Source: Escherichia coli 042 (GTDB lineage: Bacteria; Pseudomonadota; Gammaproteobacteria; Enterobacterales; Enterobacteriaceae). Taken from it: a stretch of 64,000 bases of DNA. The position numbers were made by a program, and so were the translations under genes. Shown one piece after another: positions 14,780 to 42,176 of this stretch. Below the pieces are notes generated by a model. That model made no database searches, had not been told where the DNA came from, and saw nothing but the letters and a program-made list of their open reading frames with translations. Location: NCBI RefSeq assembly GCF_000027125.1, contig NC_017626.1; one strand, given 5' to 3'. Position 1 is the stretch's first letter, and every line of letters begins with the position of its first letter.

Positions 14780-16033
14780 ATGCTGGAACAAATGGGCATT
14801 GCCGCAAAGCAAGCCTCGTATAAATTAGCGCAACTCTCCAGCCGCGAAAAAAATCGTGTGCTGGAAAAAATCGCCGATGAACTGGAAGCACAAAGCGAAA
14901 TCATCCTCAACGCTAACGCCCAGGATGTTGCTGACGCGCGTGCCAATGGCCTTAGCGAAGCGATGCTTGACCGTCTGGCACTGACGCCCGCACGGCTGAA
15001 AGGCATTGCTGACGATGTGCGCCAGGTGTGTAACCTTGCCGATCCGGTGGGGCAGGTAATCGATGGCGGCGTACTGGACAGCGGCCTGCGTCTTGAGCGT
15101 CGTCGCGTACCGCTGGGCGTGATTGGCGTGATTTATGAAGCGCGGCCGAACGTGACGGTTGATGTCGCTTCGCTGTGCCTGAAAACGGGTAACGCGGTGG
15201 TCCTGCGTGGCGGTAAAGAAACCTGCCGCACTAACGCTGCAACGGTGGCGGTGATTCAGGACGCCCTGAAATCCTGCGGCTTACCGGCGGGTGCCGTGCA
15301 GGCGATTGATAATCCTGACCGTGCGCTGGTCAGTGAAATGCTGCGTATGGATAAATACATCGACATGCTGATCCCGCGTGGTGGCGCTGGCCTGCATAAA
15401 CTGTGCCGCGAACAGTCGACGATCCCGGTGATCACAGGTGGTATAGGCGTATGCCATATTTATGTTGATGAAAGTGCAGAGATCGCTGAAGCCCTGAAAG
15501 TAATCGTCAACGCGAAAACCCAGCGTCCGAGCACATGTAATACGGTTGAAACGTTGCTGGTGAATAAAAACATCGCCGATAGCTTCCTGCCCGCATTAAG
15601 CAAACAAATGGCGGAAAGCGGCGTGACATTACACGCAGATGCAGCTGCGCTGGCGCAGTTGCAGACAGGCCCCGCGAAGGTGGTGGCTGTGAAAGCGGAA
15701 GAGTATGACGATGAGTTTCTGTCATTAGATTTGAACGTCAAAATCGTCAGCGATCTTGACGATGCCATCACCCATATTCGTGAACACGGCACACAACACT
15801 CCGATGCGATCCTGACCCGCGATATGCGCAACGCCCAGCGTTTTGTTAACGAAGTGGATTCGTCCGCTGTTTACGTTAACGCCTCTACGCGTTTTACCGA
15901 CGGCGGCCAGTTTGGTCTGGGTGCGGAAGTGGCGGTAAGCACACAAAAACTCCACGCGCGTGGCCCAATGGGGCTGGAAGCACTGACCACTTACAAGTGG
16001 ATCGGCATTGGTGATTACACCATTCGTGCGTAA
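14780..16033 (+). CDS. proA: Gamma-glutamyl phosphate reductase
   Basis: 417 aa; aldehyde dehydrogenase-family sequence directly after proB. Confidence 0.95.
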
Positions 16034-16147
16034 ATAAAACCGGGTGATGCAAAAGTAGCCATTTGATTCACAAGGCCATTGACGCATCGCCCGGTTAGTT
16101 TTAACCTTGTCCACCGTGATTCACGTTCGTGAACATGTCCTTTCAGG

Positions 16148-16223
16148 GCCGATATAGCTCAGTTGGTAGAGCAGCGCATTCGTAATGCGAAGGTCGTAGG
16201 TTCGACTCCTATTATCGGCACCA
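16148..16223 (+). tRNA. thrW: tRNA-Thr (anticodon CGU)
   Basis: 76-nt cloverleaf GCCGATATAGCTCAGTTGGTAGAGCAGCGCATTCGTAATGCG...GGTTCGACTCCTATTATCGGCACCA; anticodon loop TTCGTAA; encoded CCA. Confidence 0.9.
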
Positions 16224-16224
16224 T

Positions 16225-16503
16225 TTAAATCAATAAGTTACACATAATTAGTACCTTCCTTTTTTTTGACTGGGACAAATTTGGGACCGATGGGTTCAGG
16301 ACTGAGTCTATTTGCCGTGCGTGTTCGGTAAGGTGATTAGGCGCGAGGTGAGCATATCGACGAACCATTTCGATAGACTCCCAGCCTCCCATTTCTGAAA
16401 ATGCAAGAAGAGAAACACTGGACTGAACCAGCCTGCTTGCCTTTGCTATCAAAGTACCTTGAAGGCCAGATGATTTCTGGCGATATTTACAGCGCTTCCG
16501 CAA
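16225..16503 (-). pseudogene. C-terminal remnant of a tyrosine recombinase (phage-type integrase), 3' end abutting thrW
   Basis: Translation [26 protein letters not shown] carries the integrase C-terminal box with the catalytic Tyr; at most about 90 codons are available before the next gene, so the catalytic core is missing. Confidence 0.55.
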
Positions 16504-16585
16504 TGAGTTTTTCTCTGTGCCGCCAGAGGCGTTCCCCGCTTTTTCAGCACCGCAATAATGTCGGCGGAATGCCAGTCCTGTTGCA

Positions 16586-17056
16586 TCATGCGGCCACCTC
16601 GCTGATAAATTTTACGCCGTCGGCGGTACGCAGCCAGCGTGGGGCTTTGAGTCCTTCCGTGAAATACCAGACCAGCTCACACAGCAGCCCGGTCAGGGTT
16701 TGCTCCATTTTTGGTTCCGCCGGACGTTCCAGCAGAAGCTGGAGTAGTGCGAGGCAGTATTCGCACAAGGAATCAGGTTCGGAAATAAAGTGCTCTGGTG
16801 TGGCGGGAAGGGTATCCACGGTCAGGCTTTCGGTAAGATGCGGTGGGATGGGGTCGTGTAGTGTGGGTTGCAGTAGCGCAAGAGCCGCGTGAAGCCGCCC
16901 GCAGAGCGCCAGTCGTAGCGCTGGATCGTCGGTTTCAATCAGGGTTTCGGCAAAGCGGGCGCAGTAGTCAGCAAGGACAGTGAAATCCGTGGTGGCATTG
17001 AAGGGGACGGTCAATAGATCGAGTAAATCGCTGTCAGTGGTGAGGATTGTAGCCAT
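16586..17056 (-). CDS. Hypothetical acidic, Leu/Ala/Pro-rich protein (156 aa) of unknown function
   Basis: Clean GC-rich ORF with plausible composition; the overlapping plus-strand ORF is Ser/Arg/Gly-rich and looks like a shadow frame. No motif recognised. Confidence 0.45.
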
Positions 17057-17402
17057 AGGGCAACCTCCGATAAGTGGGTGTTCAAGCCACCACCGGAGAG
17101 GCTAATCTCGCGGGTGGTGGAACCGGGCAGGGTTAGCCTTACCAGCCTTATCGGACACTGGCGCGTCTTGCGACGCCCCCGCCCGGCCCACCATTGAGAT
17201 GTAACCGTGCGAACAACACAAAAAAAGACGCTGGCGCGTCATGTGTCGCCGATAAGATTTCTTCAGGAGGCTAATCCCGACGCCTGATTTTGCAGGCGCG
17301 GGAGAAAGATACTGCGATTGGTCATGAGTGGCAAGGGCTACATCATGTTTACCGACATCTCACGCAAAAATACCCTGATTATTAATAGCGAAAATCAGTT
17401 TC

Positions 17403-20400
17403 TTATTTTGGCGGTAGCTTTTTGCGGTTCTTTGCCAACTGGAATCCTTCAGGTAACGGTTTGAATTTATCGCCGCCTTTAGGCCAGCGTTTTGCCCTGC
17501 TCTGAAATGCCCTTAACGAGTCGATATCCAGCGTTGCAGCGACCACAAAGTCATTATCACCGCCCTTCACACGAGCAATATCACGCATAAAGGGTTCTTT
17601 TGCCGGGGAACGTACGCGACTATCGCCGTATTTTCGGTTATTCACTAAAATAGTATAGGCATGAATATCCAGCGCTGCTGATTCAATCAACGATGCAAAC
17701 GTATCTAGATCTTTATTCCAGCTCAATACCATTAATGCATCGAGTGCGCCCTGAAAACGGATCCTCGCTTTACTATTCTGGAGTTCAGAGCAAATCATAA
17801 CGCCAAAATTGACGCCGTGATGAATATATACCGGCTTACGTTGTTTAACATTAAGTGTCGAATCCCAAGACTTACCATAAGTTGAAAATAATGCCTCATC
17901 TTCACCTACGGCGGGTTCCAGCTTGGGTTGCCATATTTTGACACTCGCTGGATAGCCGAGTCTGTTATCTGAAAGGACAAGTACGGCCTCACTCTTCAGT
18001 TGATTATCGTCTAAGTGGCGGTATTCTGTTCCCGCAATTAGACTGATACCCGCCGAACTCAAACGATCAGCAATACTGTTAACCCAGCGTAACGGGATTG
18101 AAAGCTCAGGGAATAAAACATAATCAGGTTTAGGAGATAGTTTCAATGTTGCATTAACCAGTTCAGAAATCCGCTGGTACCTTGAACGGGACAAGTTAGA
18201 TTTATTGCAGGCCATTTTAGCCCAGTCGTCCTCCTCTGTTTTAATGCTGGTTAGCGCAACGACAACTTTATGTTTCCTGTCTGTGCCAATATGAATGAAT
18301 TTCTTAGGCCGAGCTTTTTTTGTCGCTTCATCTGAGTCCTGCTCCGATGCTAGCAACGTCGGTTTGATCCATACTCCGCGTAATGCTTGAGTATATTTTG
18401 CCCAAATGGTGGACGGTCTCTCATCTGGTTTTTTGTCGGATGTGGAGGGTAATCCAACACATTCGGGGGCCAGTTCTGATATTTCAGCGGGTGTTAAAGG
18501 ACGTGTAGGGAAAATGTAAGGTAGGTAACTTTCGTTCTTACGATTTCCTTTAGCCACTTTTTCCAGTCGGGTATTCTTGGTTGATTTCAAAAATAGCTTA
18601 ATAACGTCAATATCAATAAGCGATGAGTCGCTCATTAATTTCAGTATTTTAACTTCTTTTTTACTATCACGCTGATTAACAAGTTTTTCTGCCGACTGAC
18701 TCTTTACGATCTGTTTATAAGGTTCCTTTGCTAAATCAGCTCGAGCTACCAATGGCGCTTTTAAATAAAAATCTGCTGAATCAAAGCGAAGATCCAGTAA
18801 ATCCTTTAGATTCGTCAGACTTTGTGAAATATGATTAAAAAATGTATCCGCAAGGCACTCTTCTTTCTTTGAACGTTTATCAAGAAATAATCTGTCAGGA
18901 CTGTAATATCGTGTCGCTGCATCAACAAATAGCCAGCTTAATGTGCCTTTTATACAGCGCCAAAGATCATTTACTGCTCGAGTTTTGCAACCATTTATAT
19001 TCACTTCCTTACCTGAAGTAATCACCGATGCCAACAGGTTGATGGATTCGTAAGCTTTAAGTACAATTTTTTCCGCGTGCTGCCATTCATTCATACTGAT
19101 AGCAAAGCCAAGCAGCCTTGGCAGATAACTAAAATGTGCAAATAGATTATCAGCCCTAAGAATATGGTTGTAGGCAAACTGATAAAACTCTTCCCGCTGT
19201 TCTTTCCATTCACTTGGAGGCAGATCTCGTGCCAGTGTTTCAACGTAGCGTAATTGCAGTGACCAGCCCAAACGACGAATGGTTAATCCATCCGCACGGC
19301 GCAGAGTATCGGCATTTTCACCTACACTACCGGCAGCGGAAAGGACTTTAGCTGCGGTGGAGTGTTCCAGTTGATCCGGTGAAGGCATCAAGCGGTGTTC
19401 ACTAGAAAGCTCGTAGATCTCCTTTTCGATACTGTCGAGCAGGTCTATTCCAGCCCTCCCTTGAAGCACGAAAAGTTTTTGCTTATCGGATTGTAACTGG
19501 ATGGTGGTCTTACCCTGGAAATGCTCGCCCTGCTGTATTTGCCATATTTGTTTTTGCTCGTTTTTCAAATAAACGCAATCATTGCCAAGCCTATCTTGCA
19601 GCAATAACATAAATTCGTGATTATTAGTAATTGTCCCTGTATCGCGTATTACAAGGAACATATCATCGACATAACGACCGTAGTGAATTGGTGATAGTTT
19701 TTCAATGACTAATTTATCCCAATGGTGTAGCAATATATTTGAAATGATCCGACTGGCTGTTAATCCAATGACCAGACCACCATTAATAACAGGTGTTTTG
19801 TACGCTATTTTCTTTCCAAATGCCGCTGCGCCGTCAGACCAGTGCTTTAAGAATACTGCTAACTGTGCAGTAAACGCTTTTTCATCCTCAGTCAGTTTTA
19901 TGTTTAGTGTGTTATAGAGATCATCAGAGGTTATAGCCAGTGGATCAATAAAATGATAGTAACTTTTTAAATCCAGTGAGGCGGCGATAATGTCACGATC
20001 TTTTTCCAACTCGTCACGTATAGCTTTTAAGCCATCACCACGCCATTTTTGGTAGGGCTGGAAGTAGGGGCTAAAAGAACCCACGGCACTGATATGGAAT
20101 GGATTATCCTGCTCATTGCTAAATAATTCATCATTACGAATACGCTTTAGCCGCGCGCCATAGCAACAGTTATCTAAGCTGGCATCAAATTTATGCCCGA
20201 CCATGTTAATCCATAGTGCAGAGATAATGTGACTATCAACCGGGAAGTCACCAATAATACGAAACTCTGGTATCAGATCAAAATTATTAAATAAATGGTC
20301 GGCTGCTCGTTTAGGATTAGAAAAGTGGACGTGTCCATTTTGGGATTCATGTTTTTTCTTTGTGGTTAATTTTTTCGGTAACAAACGAAATTTGCCAATC

Positions 20401-20612
20401 AACTTCTTATTGCTACTGAATCCATCTTCGCTCTGCAAAAGATCTAAGAGTTTTTGCAGGTTTTCAAGTAATTCCTGCTCATACTCGGCAAATTTGATAG
20501 CAACAGGAAATGTATTCTCAAAGAAGCTATCGGCTTTTGCTTTCCGGTAAGCGACCAGAAGGTCTTCAATCGTCAGATCATCCCAGCCAGTGAAAATTGC
20601 CTGATATGTCAT
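17403..20612 (-). CDS. Reverse transcriptase fused to a C-terminal nitrilase (carbon-nitrogen hydrolase) domain; candidate anti-phage RT (DRT type 1 / UG1-like)
   Basis: 1069 aa. RT motifs: LDLKSYYHFID (motif A-like, aa 213-223), GGLVIGLTASRIISNIL (motif B-like), HYGRYVDDMFLVI (motif C YVDD, aa 314-317, nt 19662-19673). C-terminal nitrilase triad candidates: FPE (E836), VKIWQPK (K892), GVMICSE (C941). AT-rich relative to flanks. Confidence 0.85.
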   Translation of the reverse strand: MTYQAIFTGWDDLTIEDLLVAYRKAKADSFFENTFPVAIKFAEYEQELLENLQKLLDLLQSEDGFSSNKKLIGKFRLLPKKLTTKKKHESQNGHVHFSNPKRAADHLFNNFDLIPEFRIIGDFPVDSHIISALWINMVGHKFDASLDNCCYGARLKRIRNDELFSNEQDNPFHISAVGSFSPYFQPYQKWRGDGLKAIRDELEKDRDIIAASLDLKSYYHFIDPLAITSDDLYNTLNIKLTEDEKAFTAQLAVFLKHWSDGAAAFGKKIAYKTPVINGGLVIGLTASRIISNILLHHWDKLVIEKLSPIHYGRYVDDMFLVIRDTGTITNNHEFMLLLQDRLGNDCVYLKNEQKQIWQIQQGEHFQGKTTIQLQSDKQKLFVLQGRAGIDLLDSIEKEIYELSSEHRLMPSPDQLEHSTAAKVLSAAGSVGENADTLRRADGLTIRRLGWSLQLRYVETLARDLPPSEWKEQREEFYQFAYNHILRADNLFAHFSYLPRLLGFAISMNEWQHAEKIVLKAYESINLLASVITSGKEVNINGCKTRAVNDLWRCIKGTLSWLFVDAATRYYSPDRLFLDKRSKKEECLADTFFNHISQSLTNLKDLLDLRFDSADFYLKAPLVARADLAKEPYKQIVKSQSAEKLVNQRDSKKEVKILKLMSDSSLIDIDVIKLFLKSTKNTRLEKVAKGNRKNESYLPYIFPTRPLTPAEISELAPECVGLPSTSDKKPDERPSTIWAKYTQALRGVWIKPTLLASEQDSDEATKKARPKKFIHIGTDRKHKVVVALTSIKTEEDDWAKMACNKSNLSRSRYQRISELVNATLKLSPKPDYVLFPELSIPLRWVNSIADRLSSAGISLIAGTEYRHLDDNQLKSEAVLVLSDNRLGYPASVKIWQPKLEPAVGEDEALFSTYGKSWDSTLNVKQRKPVYIHHGVNFGVMICSELQNSKARIRFQGALDALMVLSWNKDLDTFASLIESAALDIHAYTILVNNRKYGDSRVRSPAKEPFMRDIARVKGGDNDFVVAATLDIDSLRAFQSRAKRWPKGGDKFKPLPEGFQLAKNRKKLPPK

Positions 20613-20906
20613 GCGTTATCGTCCTTAGATTACAGTCTGTACAGAATTAGCCAGCCGTTTCATGCCCGAAGGGGGGCTCTTGACACCAGTAATCCATCAG
20701 TGAGGCTGGCAATAATTTTGATTTGTATCCATGTTACACGCTCCCCGCAACCAGTCCGAGCATATATTTGTCACATTTTTCCCGAAAGTGATTAAGTTTG
20801 AATTTTTTGTTTAATGTCGATTTTTAGTCGACAAAATGAGGAATAAGTAAACTATTTCTTGCTGTGGCGTATCCCTGAATCTACACTGGTTTAAATATTT
20901 GTACTA

Positions 20907-21710
20907 ATGTCTATTCAGAGGCGACAGTTGCCAAACTATCTAAACTGGCTGATGCAGCACACGCTACCCGGCCAGGTGCTGCTCCAGTCATGGCTTACCC
21001 GCAACGGCATAGATCGTAAGCTCTCTTATCTCTATGTGAAGAATGGCTGGCTCAGGCGGATCGCTCACGGCGTATACTGCCGGACGGGCCGTGAGCCGGA
21101 TTGGGTAGACGCGGTTTACTGCCTTCAAACACAGTGGGAAAAGCCTGTTCGGGTGGCGGGGCTAACCAGCCTTGCGCTTCAGGGCCATGCGCACTATACC
21201 GAACCGGGTAAGCCGCAGGTCTGGCTCGCGCTTCCGGCTTACGTTAAGCTGCCGGGATGGTTTGCTGCCTTCGAACAATCTGCAACATTTATCACGCTGT
21301 ATACATCGGGGCTTACCGTAGATGTAACGTCATTGACTACGGAACTGAAAATTGGCGACCGCCAGTTAGCAGGCAGTGCCCCGGAACTGGCCGCGTATGA
21401 GATCGCCTGCGGCGTTCCTTCGTTGATATCGTTCGAACATGCCGATGCTCTGTTTCAGGGGATGAATCTTCTCAGCCCGCGTAAATTGCAGGCGTTACTC
21501 TGCGCCAGTCATTCGGTTAAAACCAACCGGGTGATGCTTTACCTTGCCCGGCGTAATGGACACCCTTATTTTCAGTATCTTGATCAAAGCGGTATAGAAA
21601 CAGGTACGGGAAAGCGGCAAATCATACCTGGTGGCTGGCTGGAGCCGGATTATCAAATTACTGTTCCACGCGAATTTAAACCGGAAGGAGTCGAAGATGG
21701 ATCTGCGTGA
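20907..21710 (+). CDS. AbiEi-family transcriptional regulator / type IV antitoxin
   Basis: 267 aa; N-terminal AbiEi-type winged-helix signature (YVKNGWLRRIAHGVYCRTG); overlaps and precedes a nucleotidyltransferase gene. Confidence 0.7.
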   Translation: MSIQRRQLPNYLNWLMQHTLPGQVLLQSWLTRNGIDRKLSYLYVKNGWLRRIAHGVYCRTGREPDWVDAVYCLQTQWEKPVRVAGLTSLALQGHAHYTEPGKPQVWLALPAYVKLPGWFAAFEQSATFITLYTSGLTVDVTSLTTELKIGDRQLAGSAPELAAYEIACGVPSLISFEHADALFQGMNLLSPRKLQALLCASHSVKTNRVMLYLARRNGHPYFQYLDQSGIETGTGKRQIIPGGWLEPDYQITVPREFKPEGVEDGSA

Positions 21711-22617
21711 TAGCTATACCCGGCAGGTCAAACTGTTGATGGACGCTCTGCCGCATGTGGCGAAGGAGTCCGGTTTCGCATTAAAAGGCGGCACCGCAAT
21801 CAATTTGTTTGTGCAGGATTTTCCCCGTCTGTCGGTGGATATCGATCTGGCGTATAAGACTTTTGCGGATCGCGATACCGATTTGACGGCGATCAACGAC
21901 GCTTTGAAGAGAATTACTGCATCGCTGAACAGTAAACCGGGGATTACCGCGATTCGGCAGGAAAATAAAACGGATGAAAAGCGCATCATTGTGAATACGG
22001 CTGATGCCCAGATTAAGATCGAGGTTAGTCCGGTCTGGCGTGGGCTATTGTTGCCTCCGGCAGAAATGTCGGTGTGCGAACGTGTGGAAATGGAGTATGG
22101 CTTCACCACTATGAGTGTCGTTTCGCTGGCGGATCTTTATGGCGGTAAAATCTGCGCAGCGCTTGATCGTCAGCACCCGCGCGATCTGTTTGATGTGCTG
22201 AATATGCTGGAGAAACCGGGACTGATGCGGGAGATCTTTGACGGTTTTCTTTGTTATCTGGCAGGCCATCCCCGCCCCATTGCCGAGTTGCTGGCTCCAA
22301 ACTGGGATACAGAGCGGATCACGACGCTGTATGCTCAGGAATTTTCGGGGATGACTCAGCAGGAAACGTCGCTGGAATCGCTGCTGTCAGTAACGACTTT
22401 GCTGCCGCAGGCGTTGAAGTCACATCTTACGGATCTGGATCGCGAGTTCTTGCTCAGTTTTAAGCAAAACAGCCCTGACTGGTCGCGGTATCGCTATCCT
22501 GAAATTCAGCATCTTCCGGCTATTCGCTGGAAGCAACGTAATCTGGCGGTGCTGAAAGATAAAAATCCGGCGAAGTATGTGGCGGCGGTGAATAAGCTAG
22601 AGAGGGTGCTGGCGTAA
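21697..22617 (+). CDS. AbiEii/AbiGii-family nucleotidyltransferase toxin (DUF1814)
   Basis: Start set at ATG 21697 (GGAAGGAG Shine-Dalgarno, 14-nt overlap with the upstream gene); nucleotidyltransferase motif ALKGGTAINLF...RLSVDIDLA. Confidence 0.75.
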   Translation: MDLRDSYTRQVKLLMDALPHVAKESGFALKGGTAINLFVQDFPRLSVDIDLAYKTFADRDTDLTAINDALKRITASLNSKPGITAIRQENKTDEKRIIVNTADAQIKIEVSPVWRGLLLPPAEMSVCERVEMEYGFTTMSVVSLADLYGGKICAALDRQHPRDLFDVLNMLEKPGLMREIFDGFLCYLAGHPRPIAELLAPNWDTERITTLYAQEFSGMTQQETSLESLLSVTTLLPQALKSHLTDLDREFLLSFKQNSPDWSRYRYPEIQHLPAIRWKQRNLAVLKDKNPAKYVAAVNKLERVLA

Positions 22618-22682
22618 TCAATAGACCAGCATTAATCACAGAAGATTACCAATCAGACAGAAATGGTTAAATCGTCGAATTC

Positions 22683-22850
22683 ATAATTAATACTTTTTCT
22701 TACGCCGCTGAACAGCTTGAAAAGGATACATATTTTAAATATCAGTGAAGTGAACAGTTTATTGCCGTTATTAATAGAGATGGAGGAATAAATACGCGTA
22801 TTCTACTATTGCAACAAAAAAAACGATGATGATCAGTTTTCATAATGAAG
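22683..22850 (-). repeat. Decayed paralogous copy of the ykgO 3' end plus ykgR region (duplicate of sequence at 41307-41340 and 42020-42176)
   Basis: 22683-22720 aligns to the rpmJ2 3' end at about 75% identity with a 1-nt frameshift (tail ...AVQRRKKKY vs ...AVQGRKKKR); 22723-22850 is about 90% identical to 42030-42160 but with a roughly 28-nt deletion in the ykgR-like frame. Confidence 0.5.
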
Positions 22851-40292: not shown

Positions 40293-41306
40293 TTACAGGT
40301 ACATTCAGTTTCTTTAGTAAATCGGAAGTAAATAAGATACGTAGCACATATCAATATAGGTTAAACGAGATTAAGTTTTAATTATTTCGATTAGGTTTAA
40401 ATTTATGTTTTTTTCCTGATGAGTGTCAATATGTGAACAGAAAAGGAATTCCATGGTTAAGTCAATATTTACAAAAAATGAAAATATTGCTTTTTTGATA
40501 AGAAGAAAAAGACATTCAGTTTCATAAGGTTATTGGCAATATAACGTTCAATTCTTACTTGCATTTTATATTAGCCAGGAACTTTGCCCTGAGGTGTTAG
40601 GAATAGTCTTAATGTGTTGTGTAATGGACTAGTAAAAAAACAAGTTTAAATGATAAGAAATAGAATATAAAACTATCATGAGTCATAATTAAAGATGATT
40701 TGCCAATCAGTAAGGTGTTTTAATGGATTAACATGCCGCACAAAATGGTTATGGGTGTTCATCCCAATAAGTGATGAAAAATTAAACAGGTGTAAGTACG
40801 TCATCTGTCCGGTAAGCCCCCTAAGAGCCAAATTAAGTGAAGTTAAACGAAGACTGCCAGTTGTCACAGGAACGATGGCCTCTTTGCCAGGGCACTGGAT
40901 TCAGTCATCTGTGCGCGTTACTCTAACTGGCACTCGAACGTCGGCGATGGGGTTACCGGTGGATCAGGCCGTTCCTGTGGCGTAAACGTTTTTATGTCAG
41001 TACCAACAGATTTACCACATTTATCATCTTAACAGTTTGAGTGTAAATGCAGGCTGCGTCGCAAAGGGAGGAAACTGAGTGGCGTGTTCAGTCTAAAAGA
41101 GGGTTGATGCCAGCATACAGGGCGAAGCTGGTCAACAAGTCAACATTAAGATAATGGAATATTCGGAGAGAAACGTCAGGCAGTTGACCTTAAATGAAGA
41201 GGAAGATATATCCCCAGGAAAATTAATGCTGGTGTAATAAATACACCAACATTAATCAGGTCTGATTATTAATCAGACAAATATCGTTAATCCGGCGAAT
41301 TATGAA

Positions 41307-41447
41307 TCAACGTTTTTTCTTACGCCCCTGAACGGCCTTAAAACGTGGATTAGATTTACAAATCACATACAGCCGTCCTTTTCGCTTCACAATCTGACAG
41401 TCTGGATGGCGTTCTTTTGCGGTACGCAGAGAGTTAAGGACTTTCAT
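41307..41447 (-). CDS. rpmJ2: Zinc-independent paralog of ribosomal protein L36
   Basis: Not in the ORF track (46 aa). Manual translation [46 protein letters not shown]; start overlaps the rpmE2 stop by 1 nt. Confidence 0.85.
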
Positions 41448-41741: not shown

Positions 41742-42074
41742 TAAAGATACATGCTCATCCGGATCATTTCAACACCCAATCCCTGTGACCATTTGTGGTA
41801 TGTGGAATTTCCTCAACGGGGAAGTCTGGCATTGTTAACAGCCATTGGCTGACGCTCCCATAAACGCCTGGATGAGTGATTGATGATGGTTTCGCTGAGA
41901 GTATGGATTTTTCGAGAATGGAGGTTATCTCCACTTTACTGGCCGATGATTTATCGCAGTATGATTGATTACCTGACAGCGTGTATTCCTCTCCCACGGA
42001 TATAATAATTACTTACAAAAAGGGAGAGGATGCATATTTTAAATATCACTGAAGTGAACAGTTTATTGCCGTTA

Positions 42075-42176
42075 TTAATAGAAATGGAAAAATAAATAGG
42101 CGTATTCTACAATTGCGACAAAAACAACGATATTAATCAGTTTATGACTGATTTGTTGTACTTTATTCTCTTTCAT
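42075..42176 (-). CDS. ykgR: Small hydrophobic protein YkgR (33 aa)
   Basis: Manual translation MKENKVQQISHKLINIVVFVAIVEYAYLFFHFY; below the ORF-track length cut-off; matches my recollection of YkgR. Confidence 0.6.
   Translation of the reverse strand: MKENKVQQISHKLINIVVFVAIVEYAYLFFHFY

Follow-up and report, generated by a model that had tools for sequence, protein, structure and literature searches.

What occupies the thrW hotspot of Escherichia coli 042, and is the occupant a defence island that could still move? We addressed this question in a stretch of 64,000 nucleotides (contig NC_017626.1 of RefSeq assembly GCF_000027125.1; hereafter the window), in which the segment directly downstream of the tRNA gene thrW carries a gene for a reverse transcriptase (RT) fused to a nitrilase, followed by an AbiEi/AbiEii pair. 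Our reading, to which we assign a probability of roughly 0.8, is that this segment, from 16224 to about 22612, is the eroded and immobile remnant of a thrW island that holds two independent anti-phage modules of known types. This supports the interpretation of a first-pass annotation of the same DNA and changes its emphasis in three respects: the right boundary lies elsewhere, the island is an immobile, eroded stump, and this type of occupant was already known. Published catalogues already contain the hotspot, both families of systems and this very island. What is new is modest, namely that the RT-nitrilase went uncounted in a 2023 catalogue and that the island is the reciprocal cargo variant of GI-thrW, an island of sequence type 131 (ST131).

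An eroded island with two putative defence modules adjoins thrW

The sole tRNA gene of the window is thrW, which encodes tRNA-Thr(CGT) at 16148–16223 on the plus strand (ARAGORN; Rfam tRNA, 71.8 bits) and has proB and proA upstream. The 3' 45 nt of the gene (16179–16223) form the att core, which recurs as thrW' in other thrW islands; the alignment to thrW' of JJ1887 and to the attR of K-12 begins at the anticodon loop. PADLOC scored two modules in the segment that follows as defence systems, a class 3 DRT and an AbiE system. The first is an intact gene for a 1069-amino-acid (aa) UG5-large RT-nitrilase, a class 3 UG/Abi RT (17403–20612, minus strand). The second consists of abiEi (20907–21710) and abiEii (21697–22617), both on the plus strand and divergent from the RT gene. 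Content of G+C is 36–46% over 17.3–20.9 kb, compared with 50–59% in the flanks.

All genes that the first-pass annotation had listed downstream of thrW (an integrase remnant, a 156-aa open reading frame (ORF), the RT-nitrilase gene and the AbiEi/AbiEii pair) were confirmed, and defence ORFs fill 77% of the 6,389 bases of the island (16224–22612), which it had described as made up almost entirely of defence-type genes. Its statement that the segment contains only those genes was too narrow: it had missed the remnant of a Ner/HTH_35-like gene, a C4 RNA, an isrK-like small RNA (sRNA) and a remnant of kwaB. The island starts on the thrW side as proposed, whereas the right edge had been set at 22682, about 70 nt too far right, with homology to the backbone of an empty-site strain beginning at 22607–22613.

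The right junction is a 12-nt microhomology, TGCTGGnGTAAT, that overlaps the abiEii stop codon. Alignment and blastn place it at 22607–22618 (TGCTGG(C)GTAAT), in sequence common to the 3' end of abiEii and the backbone. The 3' end of abiEii is ...GGTGCTGGAGTAAT in JJ1887 and 33E, and the corresponding sequences are ...AATGCTGGCGTAATCAATAG in the backbone and ...GGTGCTGGCGTAATCAATAG in the window; the final residue of AbiEii, Glu in JJ1887 and 33E, has become Ala in the window. From about 22613 onwards the sequence is backbone, which gives an island of about 6.4 kb. The end of the abiEii coding sequence was thus joined to the backbone by a deletion at the microhomology. At an empty site, represented by an O145:H28 strain, the order is thrW - LysR(yagP) - SDR - hypothetical gene - ykgR' - LysR - hydrolase - MFS - paoD. 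The deletion took away the distal integrase, the attR (thrW') and some 2.6 kb of backbone, and all of these are still present in JJ1887 or 33E. A search of the 64 kb that allowed up to 3 mismatches found no second copy of the thrW 3' end, and repeats within 16–24 kb were at chance level only. With no attR and only about 70 integrase codons left, the element therefore cannot move by site-specific recombination.

Beyond the junction, the paralogous, backbone-like sequence that had been reported is present: 22614–22839 is 75–90% identical to 41234–41343 and 42027–42143, in the ykgR region. RefSeq calls this same stretch an incomplete ykgR; the true ykgR region lies about 19 kb further on.

We compared the thrW region across 5,426 complete E. 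coli genomes, the population set for the counts below. The segment is not universal: the whole island was found in 258 genomes, 948 have an empty thrW-yagP junction, and other occupants fill most of the remainder. Alternative occupants are CP4-6, the ST131 island and a dpt island. CP4-6, which the first-pass annotation had named as the much larger occupant in K-12, was located at 262898–297205 (34.3 kb). The site is a published defence hotspot, #33 (yagP-proA/tRNA_Thr_CGT), which is filled in 555 genomes, and 275 of these have defence systems there (Hochhauser, Millman & Sorek 2023, PMC10121019). Its conserved flanks are proA/thrW on one side and the yagP-pao region on the other. In that catalogue AbiEii is confined to hotspots #5, #33 and #37, P4-like satellites use #33, and the entry for ST2747 and ST2747a describes a 7,020-bp, 7-gene island of mobile-element type 'None' with AbiEii as its sole system (PMC10121019). 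RefSeq record NZ_CP007392 (ST2747) carries the island of the window with every gene matching, and the stops of proA and LysR lie 7,019 bp apart in it. Two PLSDB records, NZ_CP146678.1 (64 kb) and CP088862.1 (35 kb), contain 68–98% of the island at 99% identity and are classed as non-mobilizable; these 'plasmids' are probably mislabelled chromosomal fragments.

The AbiE pair is a separable cassette

The two modules are distributed independently: the AbiE cassette (20697–22618) is present in 832 genomes, including JJ1887, where it stands beside a type I restriction-modification (R-M) system, and 33E, where it stands beside dptFGH and helix-turn-helix (HTH) genes, compared with 260 genomes for the RT gene. 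The left edge of the cassette, at about 20697–20704, where homology to JJ1887 and 33E starts at GGCTGGCA, is fixed whatever the neighbour, be it the RT gene, hsdR, or HTH genes plus dptFGH. The putative promoter/operator region upstream of the genes (20697–20906, plus strand) is conserved among cassettes. A scan of it for inverted repeats of the kind expected for autoregulation gave only imperfect palindromes, at 20823–20836 (10-nt) and 20875–20918 (a 22-nt pair, 73% complementary).

Within the cassette the antitoxin gene comes first and overlaps the toxin gene by 14 nt. The product of abiEi, an antitoxin and transcriptional regulator, matches PADLOC AbiEi (E=1.6e-79) and has the two domains typical of such antitoxins, a winged HTH at the N-terminus (Pfam AbiEi_3_N, residues 4–90, 3.4e-29) and an antitoxicity domain at the C-terminus (AbiEi_3, residues 95–247, 5.3e-35); RefSeq relatives start the gene at 20928. 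The product of abiEii, a DUF1814 nucleotidyltransferase toxin (PADLOC E=1e-115; PF08843, 8.8e-35), shows in translation KGGTAINLF...SVDIDL, an instance of the nucleotidyltransferase motif hG[GS]...DxD. By the model for this family, AbiEii would block translation through tRNA modification, and the two-domain AbiEi would also repress the operon.

Alleles of the cassette are 94–98% identical to that of the window, which differs by 2–6% from every allele in complete genomes. All are intact, with a pN/pS of 0.13–0.18 between alleles, and they are under purifying selection. In different carriers, at least four abiE alleles (95–98% identical) stand beside a near-invariant RT gene, forming an allelic mosaic. 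The comparison with strain 7/2 shows the pattern well, with 5 differences over 16224–21088, 64 over 21089–22296 and about 1–2% divergence in the backbone. Homologous exchange is a plausible cause: recombination tracts would come in from the right flank, which is shared, and stop within abiE, since a donor that lacks the RT gene has no homology to offer further on.

We expect the AbiE pair to act by abortive infection and probably also to stabilise the island. A second reading turns this order around and makes AbiE mainly an addiction or stabilisation module of thrW islands, with defence secondary or absent, so that the island would hold one real defence system. At least three different thrW islands have the cassette as their constant distal element, beside the integrase and attR, while the neighbouring cargo changes, and the number of genomes that carry it points the same way. 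In S. agalactiae, AbiE reportedly stabilises plasmids. Addiction and defence roles are not exclusive, however, and AbiE systems are counted as defence in both PADLOC and DefenseFinder. They first became known from abortive-infection phenotypes (PMC3985639) and have recently been reclassified into type VII among toxin-antitoxin systems (bioRxiv 10.64898/2026.01.19.700257). We consider an AbiE pair that chiefly maintains the island unlikely, although it is the strongest of the competing readings.

A conserved frame carries different cargo

Sister structures in other genomes place the island in context. In JJ1887 the order of GI-thrW is thrW - int' - 156 aa - C4 - hsdS - hsdM - hsdR - AbiEi - AbiEii - int(pseudo) - thrW' - int', with 88% identity to the window over 16000–17335 and 93% over 20704–22618. 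The closest orthologue of the RT-nitrilase, at 82% amino-acid identity, lies on an SRA-derived metagenomic contig (L012) with the order hsdR - hsdM - hsdS - RT-nitrilase - isrK/C4 - 183 aa - HTH_35 - ... - integrase. This contig aligns with 16531–17320 and 17403–20652 of the window at 73–77% nucleotide identity, and the hsd genes of L012 and JJ1887 share 82% identity. The RT loci of Salmonella, Yersinia and Citrobacter read hsdRMS - kwaA - kwaB - RT-nitrilase and lie beside an integrase and a tRNA. In L012 and a second RT-nitrilase-bearing island from other Enterobacterales (L008), an EFASI RNA motif (RF02957, 103–112 bits) was found directly upstream of Integrase_1-type integrase genes, at L012 11005–11133 and L008 9836–9966.

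From these structures a history can be proposed. The ancestral island would have read thrW - int - Ner-like HTH - 156-aa gene - C4/isrK sRNAs - RT-nitrilase - (Kiwa) - type I R-M - AbiE - distal int - attR. Kiwa and the type I R-M system would then have been lost, leaving a stump of kwaB, followed by most of the proximal integrase; a microhomology deletion starting at the abiEii stop codon would finally have taken the distal integrase, attR and LysR(yagP)-SDR-hypothetical gene. Alternative losses from an ancestor with both cargoes would be the simplest reading of the difference between the window island and GI-thrW.

The cargo is type I R-M in ST131, the RT-nitrilase in the window, both in L012 and dpt in 33E. 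These arrangements raise a more speculative possibility, that the conserved frame (int' - 156-aa gene - C4/isrK on one side and AbiE on the other) is a dedicated slot for cargo exchange in a family of thrW islands. In it AbiE would serve as the anchoring addiction module, whole defence systems would come and go between fixed junctions, and the RT-nitrilase would function as an autonomous single-gene UG5-large system of E. coli without a membrane partner. We put this forward tentatively and regard the combination as doubtful, somewhat more so than a stabilising role for AbiE taken by itself.

The RT-nitrilase is intact and belongs to UG5-large

The RT-nitrilase matches the PADLOC profile RT_UG5-nitrilase over positions 9–901 of 907 (E=0, 1034 bits). 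Profile scores also place it in its clade, as this full-length UG5 match compares with 89 bits for Drt1a (UG1). Several PADLOC and NCBIfam RT profiles match residues ~124–413, and the nitrilase domain is covered by PADLOC RTasNitrilase at residues 783–1058 (E=1.9e-43). The catalytic motifs are intact: YVDD at 314–317, the nitrilase residue E836 within a PELS motif, and C941. YVDD and C941 align with D324/D325 and the active-site C1116 of DRT1 (PDB 9yfd). Orthologues of nearly equal length and 70–82% identity occur across Gammaproteobacteria, and we found no tested member of this orthologue group in the literature. Each E. coli genome with the gene has one copy, and all copies are at least 99.7% identical.

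UG5-large proteins are class 3 RT-nitrilases that are sometimes accompanied by a transmembrane (TM) partner (Mestre et al. 2022). The partner is found in 31 of 299 members and is hence optional, although it is required in the E101 system. DRT1, DRT5S and DRT5L carry out protein-primed, template-free synthesis (Neville et al.; PMC13275509). In DRT1 the RT and nitrilase active sites are both required, DNA adducts regulate the nitrilase, and the outcome is abortive infection (PMC13275509). DRT11, a UG5-large system of S. meliloti, protects without a TM protein (Sanchez-Nieto et al. 2025; bioRxiv 10.64898/2025.12.16.694600). By analogy with DRT1, DRT5L and DRT11, the protein encoded in the window would make template-free, protein-primed DNA adducts; these would restrain the fused nitrilase effector until phage infection frees it, leading to abortive infection.

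Upstream of the RT gene lies a remnant of about 65 nt from the 3' end of kwaB, a gene of the Kiwa system (20626–20690, minus strand). It was recognised by alignment, with the conserved stretch ...CCTTCGGGCATGAA...GGCTGGCTAA.TC.GTACAG..., and by the residual peptide PPFGHE in the ORF at 20647–20712, compared with TPFGHEKRLANSVQALS in Salmonella KwaB. In the Salmonella, Yersinia and Citrobacter relatives, where PADLOC identified KwaA and KwaB, kwaB lies 13 nt upstream of the RT gene. Kiwa as an obligatory partner of the RT was considered and rejected: it is a separate known system and is absent from L012 and from a Vibrio locus.

The kwaB stump has a further bearing, as it indicates that genes upstream of the RT were deleted. 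It thus lends some weight to a third reading, that the defence genes are relics in a decaying island and no longer defend, with the RT-nitrilase inactive after the loss of its operon partners, its promoter and any membrane effector. The same could be drawn from the lack of a promoter-like site found upstream of the RT gene, from the need of the E101 UG5-large system for a TM protein that the window lacks, and from broken copies of the gene in some carriers. MEI003, the best-matching genome, has a 4-nt deletion at window 19084–19087 that splits the RT-nitrilase into two coding sequences, and WP9-S17-ESBL-11 has an IS5-family insertion in the gene. Such inactivation is occasional, affecting few of the 260 carriers, and the 3.2-kb ORF is intact with its catalytic residues in about 255 of them, which tells against a relic. 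Moreover, the closest relative, L012, is likewise without Kiwa, and DRT11 and DRT1 function as single genes. Four diverged loci, some with kwaB and some without, share a conserved stretch in the 50 nt upstream of the RT ATG, and purifying selection on AbiE also speaks against decay. We therefore judge the relic reading to be improbable, and less credible than either of the two alternatives considered so far.

We thus retain an eroded island with two anti-phage modules as our preferred reading, against which several points have to be weighed. A Pfam-A search of the RT-nitrilase found neither RVT_1 nor CN_hydrolase, and the domain calls therefore rest on the PADLOC profiles, the motifs and the alignment to DRT1. 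E101, which is the one UG5-large system that has been tested in E. coli, is reported to need its TM partner; a tblastn search of the window with the E101 TM protein gave a best E of 5.5, and the RT-nitrilase is only about 26% identical to the E101 protein in a comparison confined to the N-terminal ~390 residues of the latter. Promoter scans of the intergenic region between the RT gene and abiEi found no consensus sigma-70 promoter, and expression of the RT gene is uncertain because its upstream neighbours have been lost and no clear promoter was found. It is homology that suggests protection of this host by either module. Finally, the direction of the history is unpolarised, as loss from an ancestor with both cargoes and separate insertions are both possible. 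As regards a membrane partner of another kind, no same-strand TM ORF flanks the RT gene, and hydrophobic small ORFs occur only as antisense or convergent overlaps.

The thrW-proximal part of the frame holds a lambdoid-type integrase remnant

Next to thrW, at 16225–16440 on the minus strand, lies the C-terminal remnant of an integrase gene of about 70 codons that reads toward thrW (phrog_1, phrog_216). RefSeq relatives label it 'integrase, incomplete, missing N-terminus'. SfIV, a serotype-converting phage of Shigella, has an integrase gene whose 3' end matches the remnant at 89% identity, and intact thrW integrases of many E. coli, O157:H7 included, match it at 96–97%. These identities indicate a lambdoid-type rather than a P4-type origin.

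The stump is followed by the remnant of a frameshifted gene for a Ner/HTH_35-like DNA-binding protein (16449–16589, minus strand). By tblastn, the HTH_35 protein of L012 matches it in two frames with 51% and 65% identity; it also matches phrog_769, a transcriptional repressor family, and RefSeq describes it as 'HTH domain-containing, frameshifted'. The 156-aa gene comes next (16586–17056, minus strand). Its product is a conserved hypothetical protein with 646 homologues across Enterobacterales and no match in PADLOC, NCBIfam, PHROGs or Pfam. The protein is 59% identical to that of the same-position gene of L012, and JJ1887 has a counterpart in the same position. An AlphaFold2 model (pLDDT 78.5) is a helical bundle, for which fold searches of the PDB and BFVD returned generic four-helix-bundle matches only, none at E<0.001. 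The gene is part of the mobile-element frame and is not a recognised defence gene.

Two RNA genes lie between the 156-aa gene and the RT gene, both on the minus strand. At 17110–17198, a C4-type antisense RNA gene of the family of phage P1/P7 c4 and P4 CI matches RF01695 over its full length (71.1 bits against a gathering score of 45); RefSeq relatives place a coding sequence for an 'ash family protein' (17102–17275) over it. Within 17221–17312, an isrK-like sRNA (17221–17299; RF01394, 68.8 bits against a gathering score of 50) overlaps a c4-a1b1 target element (17260–17312) that stays under its gathering score (RF03163, 43.8 against 46.7). This region has a promoter-like site at 17334–17306 on the minus strand and a terminator-like hairpin at 17240–17227 followed by a T-run. 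Matches to the C4/isrK region lie in the antirepressor regions of lambdoid and Stx phages.

The same pair of RNAs also follows the closest RT orthologue, at L012 9431–9618. A functional tie between isrK/C4 and the RT could be argued from two loci, 23% apart in nucleotide sequence, in both of which the RNAs stand immediately 3' of the RT gene. It is more speculative than the cargo-exchange reading and much less likely, as JJ1887 has the RNAs without an RT and other RT loci lack the RNAs; with L012 and the window as the only loci that combine the two, C4/isrK as an RT-specific non-coding RNA partner was rejected.

That the segment is instead the remnant of a P4-like phage satellite, with defence genes in the canonical psu-int hotspot, is rejected as very improbable: the C4/CI-type RNA and 'ash' annotation are typical of P4-like elements, such satellites are reported at hotspot #33 (PMC10121019), and the first validation of a UG5-large system was of one from a P4 hotspot, but a scan of every segment ORF of at least 20 aa matched no P4 core gene (psu, delta, sid, alpA, epsilon or alpha, the primase), the integrase stump is nearest to an SfIV-type lambdoid integrase, the RNA region resembles lambdoid and Stx phages as noted above, and Hochhauser et al. 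scored the mobile-element type of the island as 'None' (PMC10121019).

Farther to the left, positions 1–8308 of the window cover the tail of Flag-2, a lateral-flagellar cluster (lafU region), and then dinB, yafN-yafO, yafP, rtcB and prfH. In the island-bearing strain 7/2 the flagellar genes are deleted and rtcB/prfH are truncated, and JJ1887 is without yafNO; the left flank therefore varies between strains too.

Comparison with known systems

The island opens no new class of system and answers no long-standing question. Its interest lies in a concrete and clearly bounded case in which defence islands linked to tRNA genes can be seen to erode and exchange cargo; the pandemic ST131 clone has a sister structure that allows direct comparison. 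The single-gene UG5-large RT-nitrilase is present in about 5% of complete E. coli genomes, many of which come from clinical isolates, and would be suited to asking whether UG5-large needs a membrane partner in E. coli.

Among characterised systems, E101 ('RT-nitrilase + 1TM'; Rousset 2022, PMC9122126), DRT11 and DRT5L likewise combine an RT with a YVDD motif and a C-terminal C-N hydrolase in a protein of ~1000–1070 aa. DRT11 is, like the window protein, a single gene without a TM partner, whereas E101 has such a partner, of which the window holds no homologue. DRT1 (UG1; PDB 9yfd) has the same class 3 architecture, with the nitrilase Cys and YVDD in alignment; according to the DRT1 paper, other class 3 RTs do not conserve its priming residue, Ser402 (PMC13275509). 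The AbiE module differs in subfamily from the system of Dy et al. 2014 (PMC3985639), as the antitoxin encoded in the window belongs to Pfam AbiEi_3 and not to AbiEi_4.

At the level of the island, the catalogue of Hochhauser et al. flagged only AbiEii, and not the RT-nitrilase, in this occupant; it thus under-counted the defence content at thrW. CP4-6 of K-12 shares with it the attachment site in the 3' part of thrW, but retains intF and attR, is unrelated in gene content, and its flanks align with the window only over the tRNA core. The ST131 island GI-thrW (JJ1887, EC958; PMC4659465) is far closer: it shares the frame thrW - int' - 156-aa gene - C4 RNA ... AbiEi - AbiEii and has hsdSMR, a type I R-M system, in place of the RT-nitrilase. 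Unlike the window island, it keeps the distal integrase pseudogene and the thrW' attR, and has lost the pao region instead. With a shared frame and different cargo, the window island and GI-thrW are therefore complementary cargo variants of one frame.

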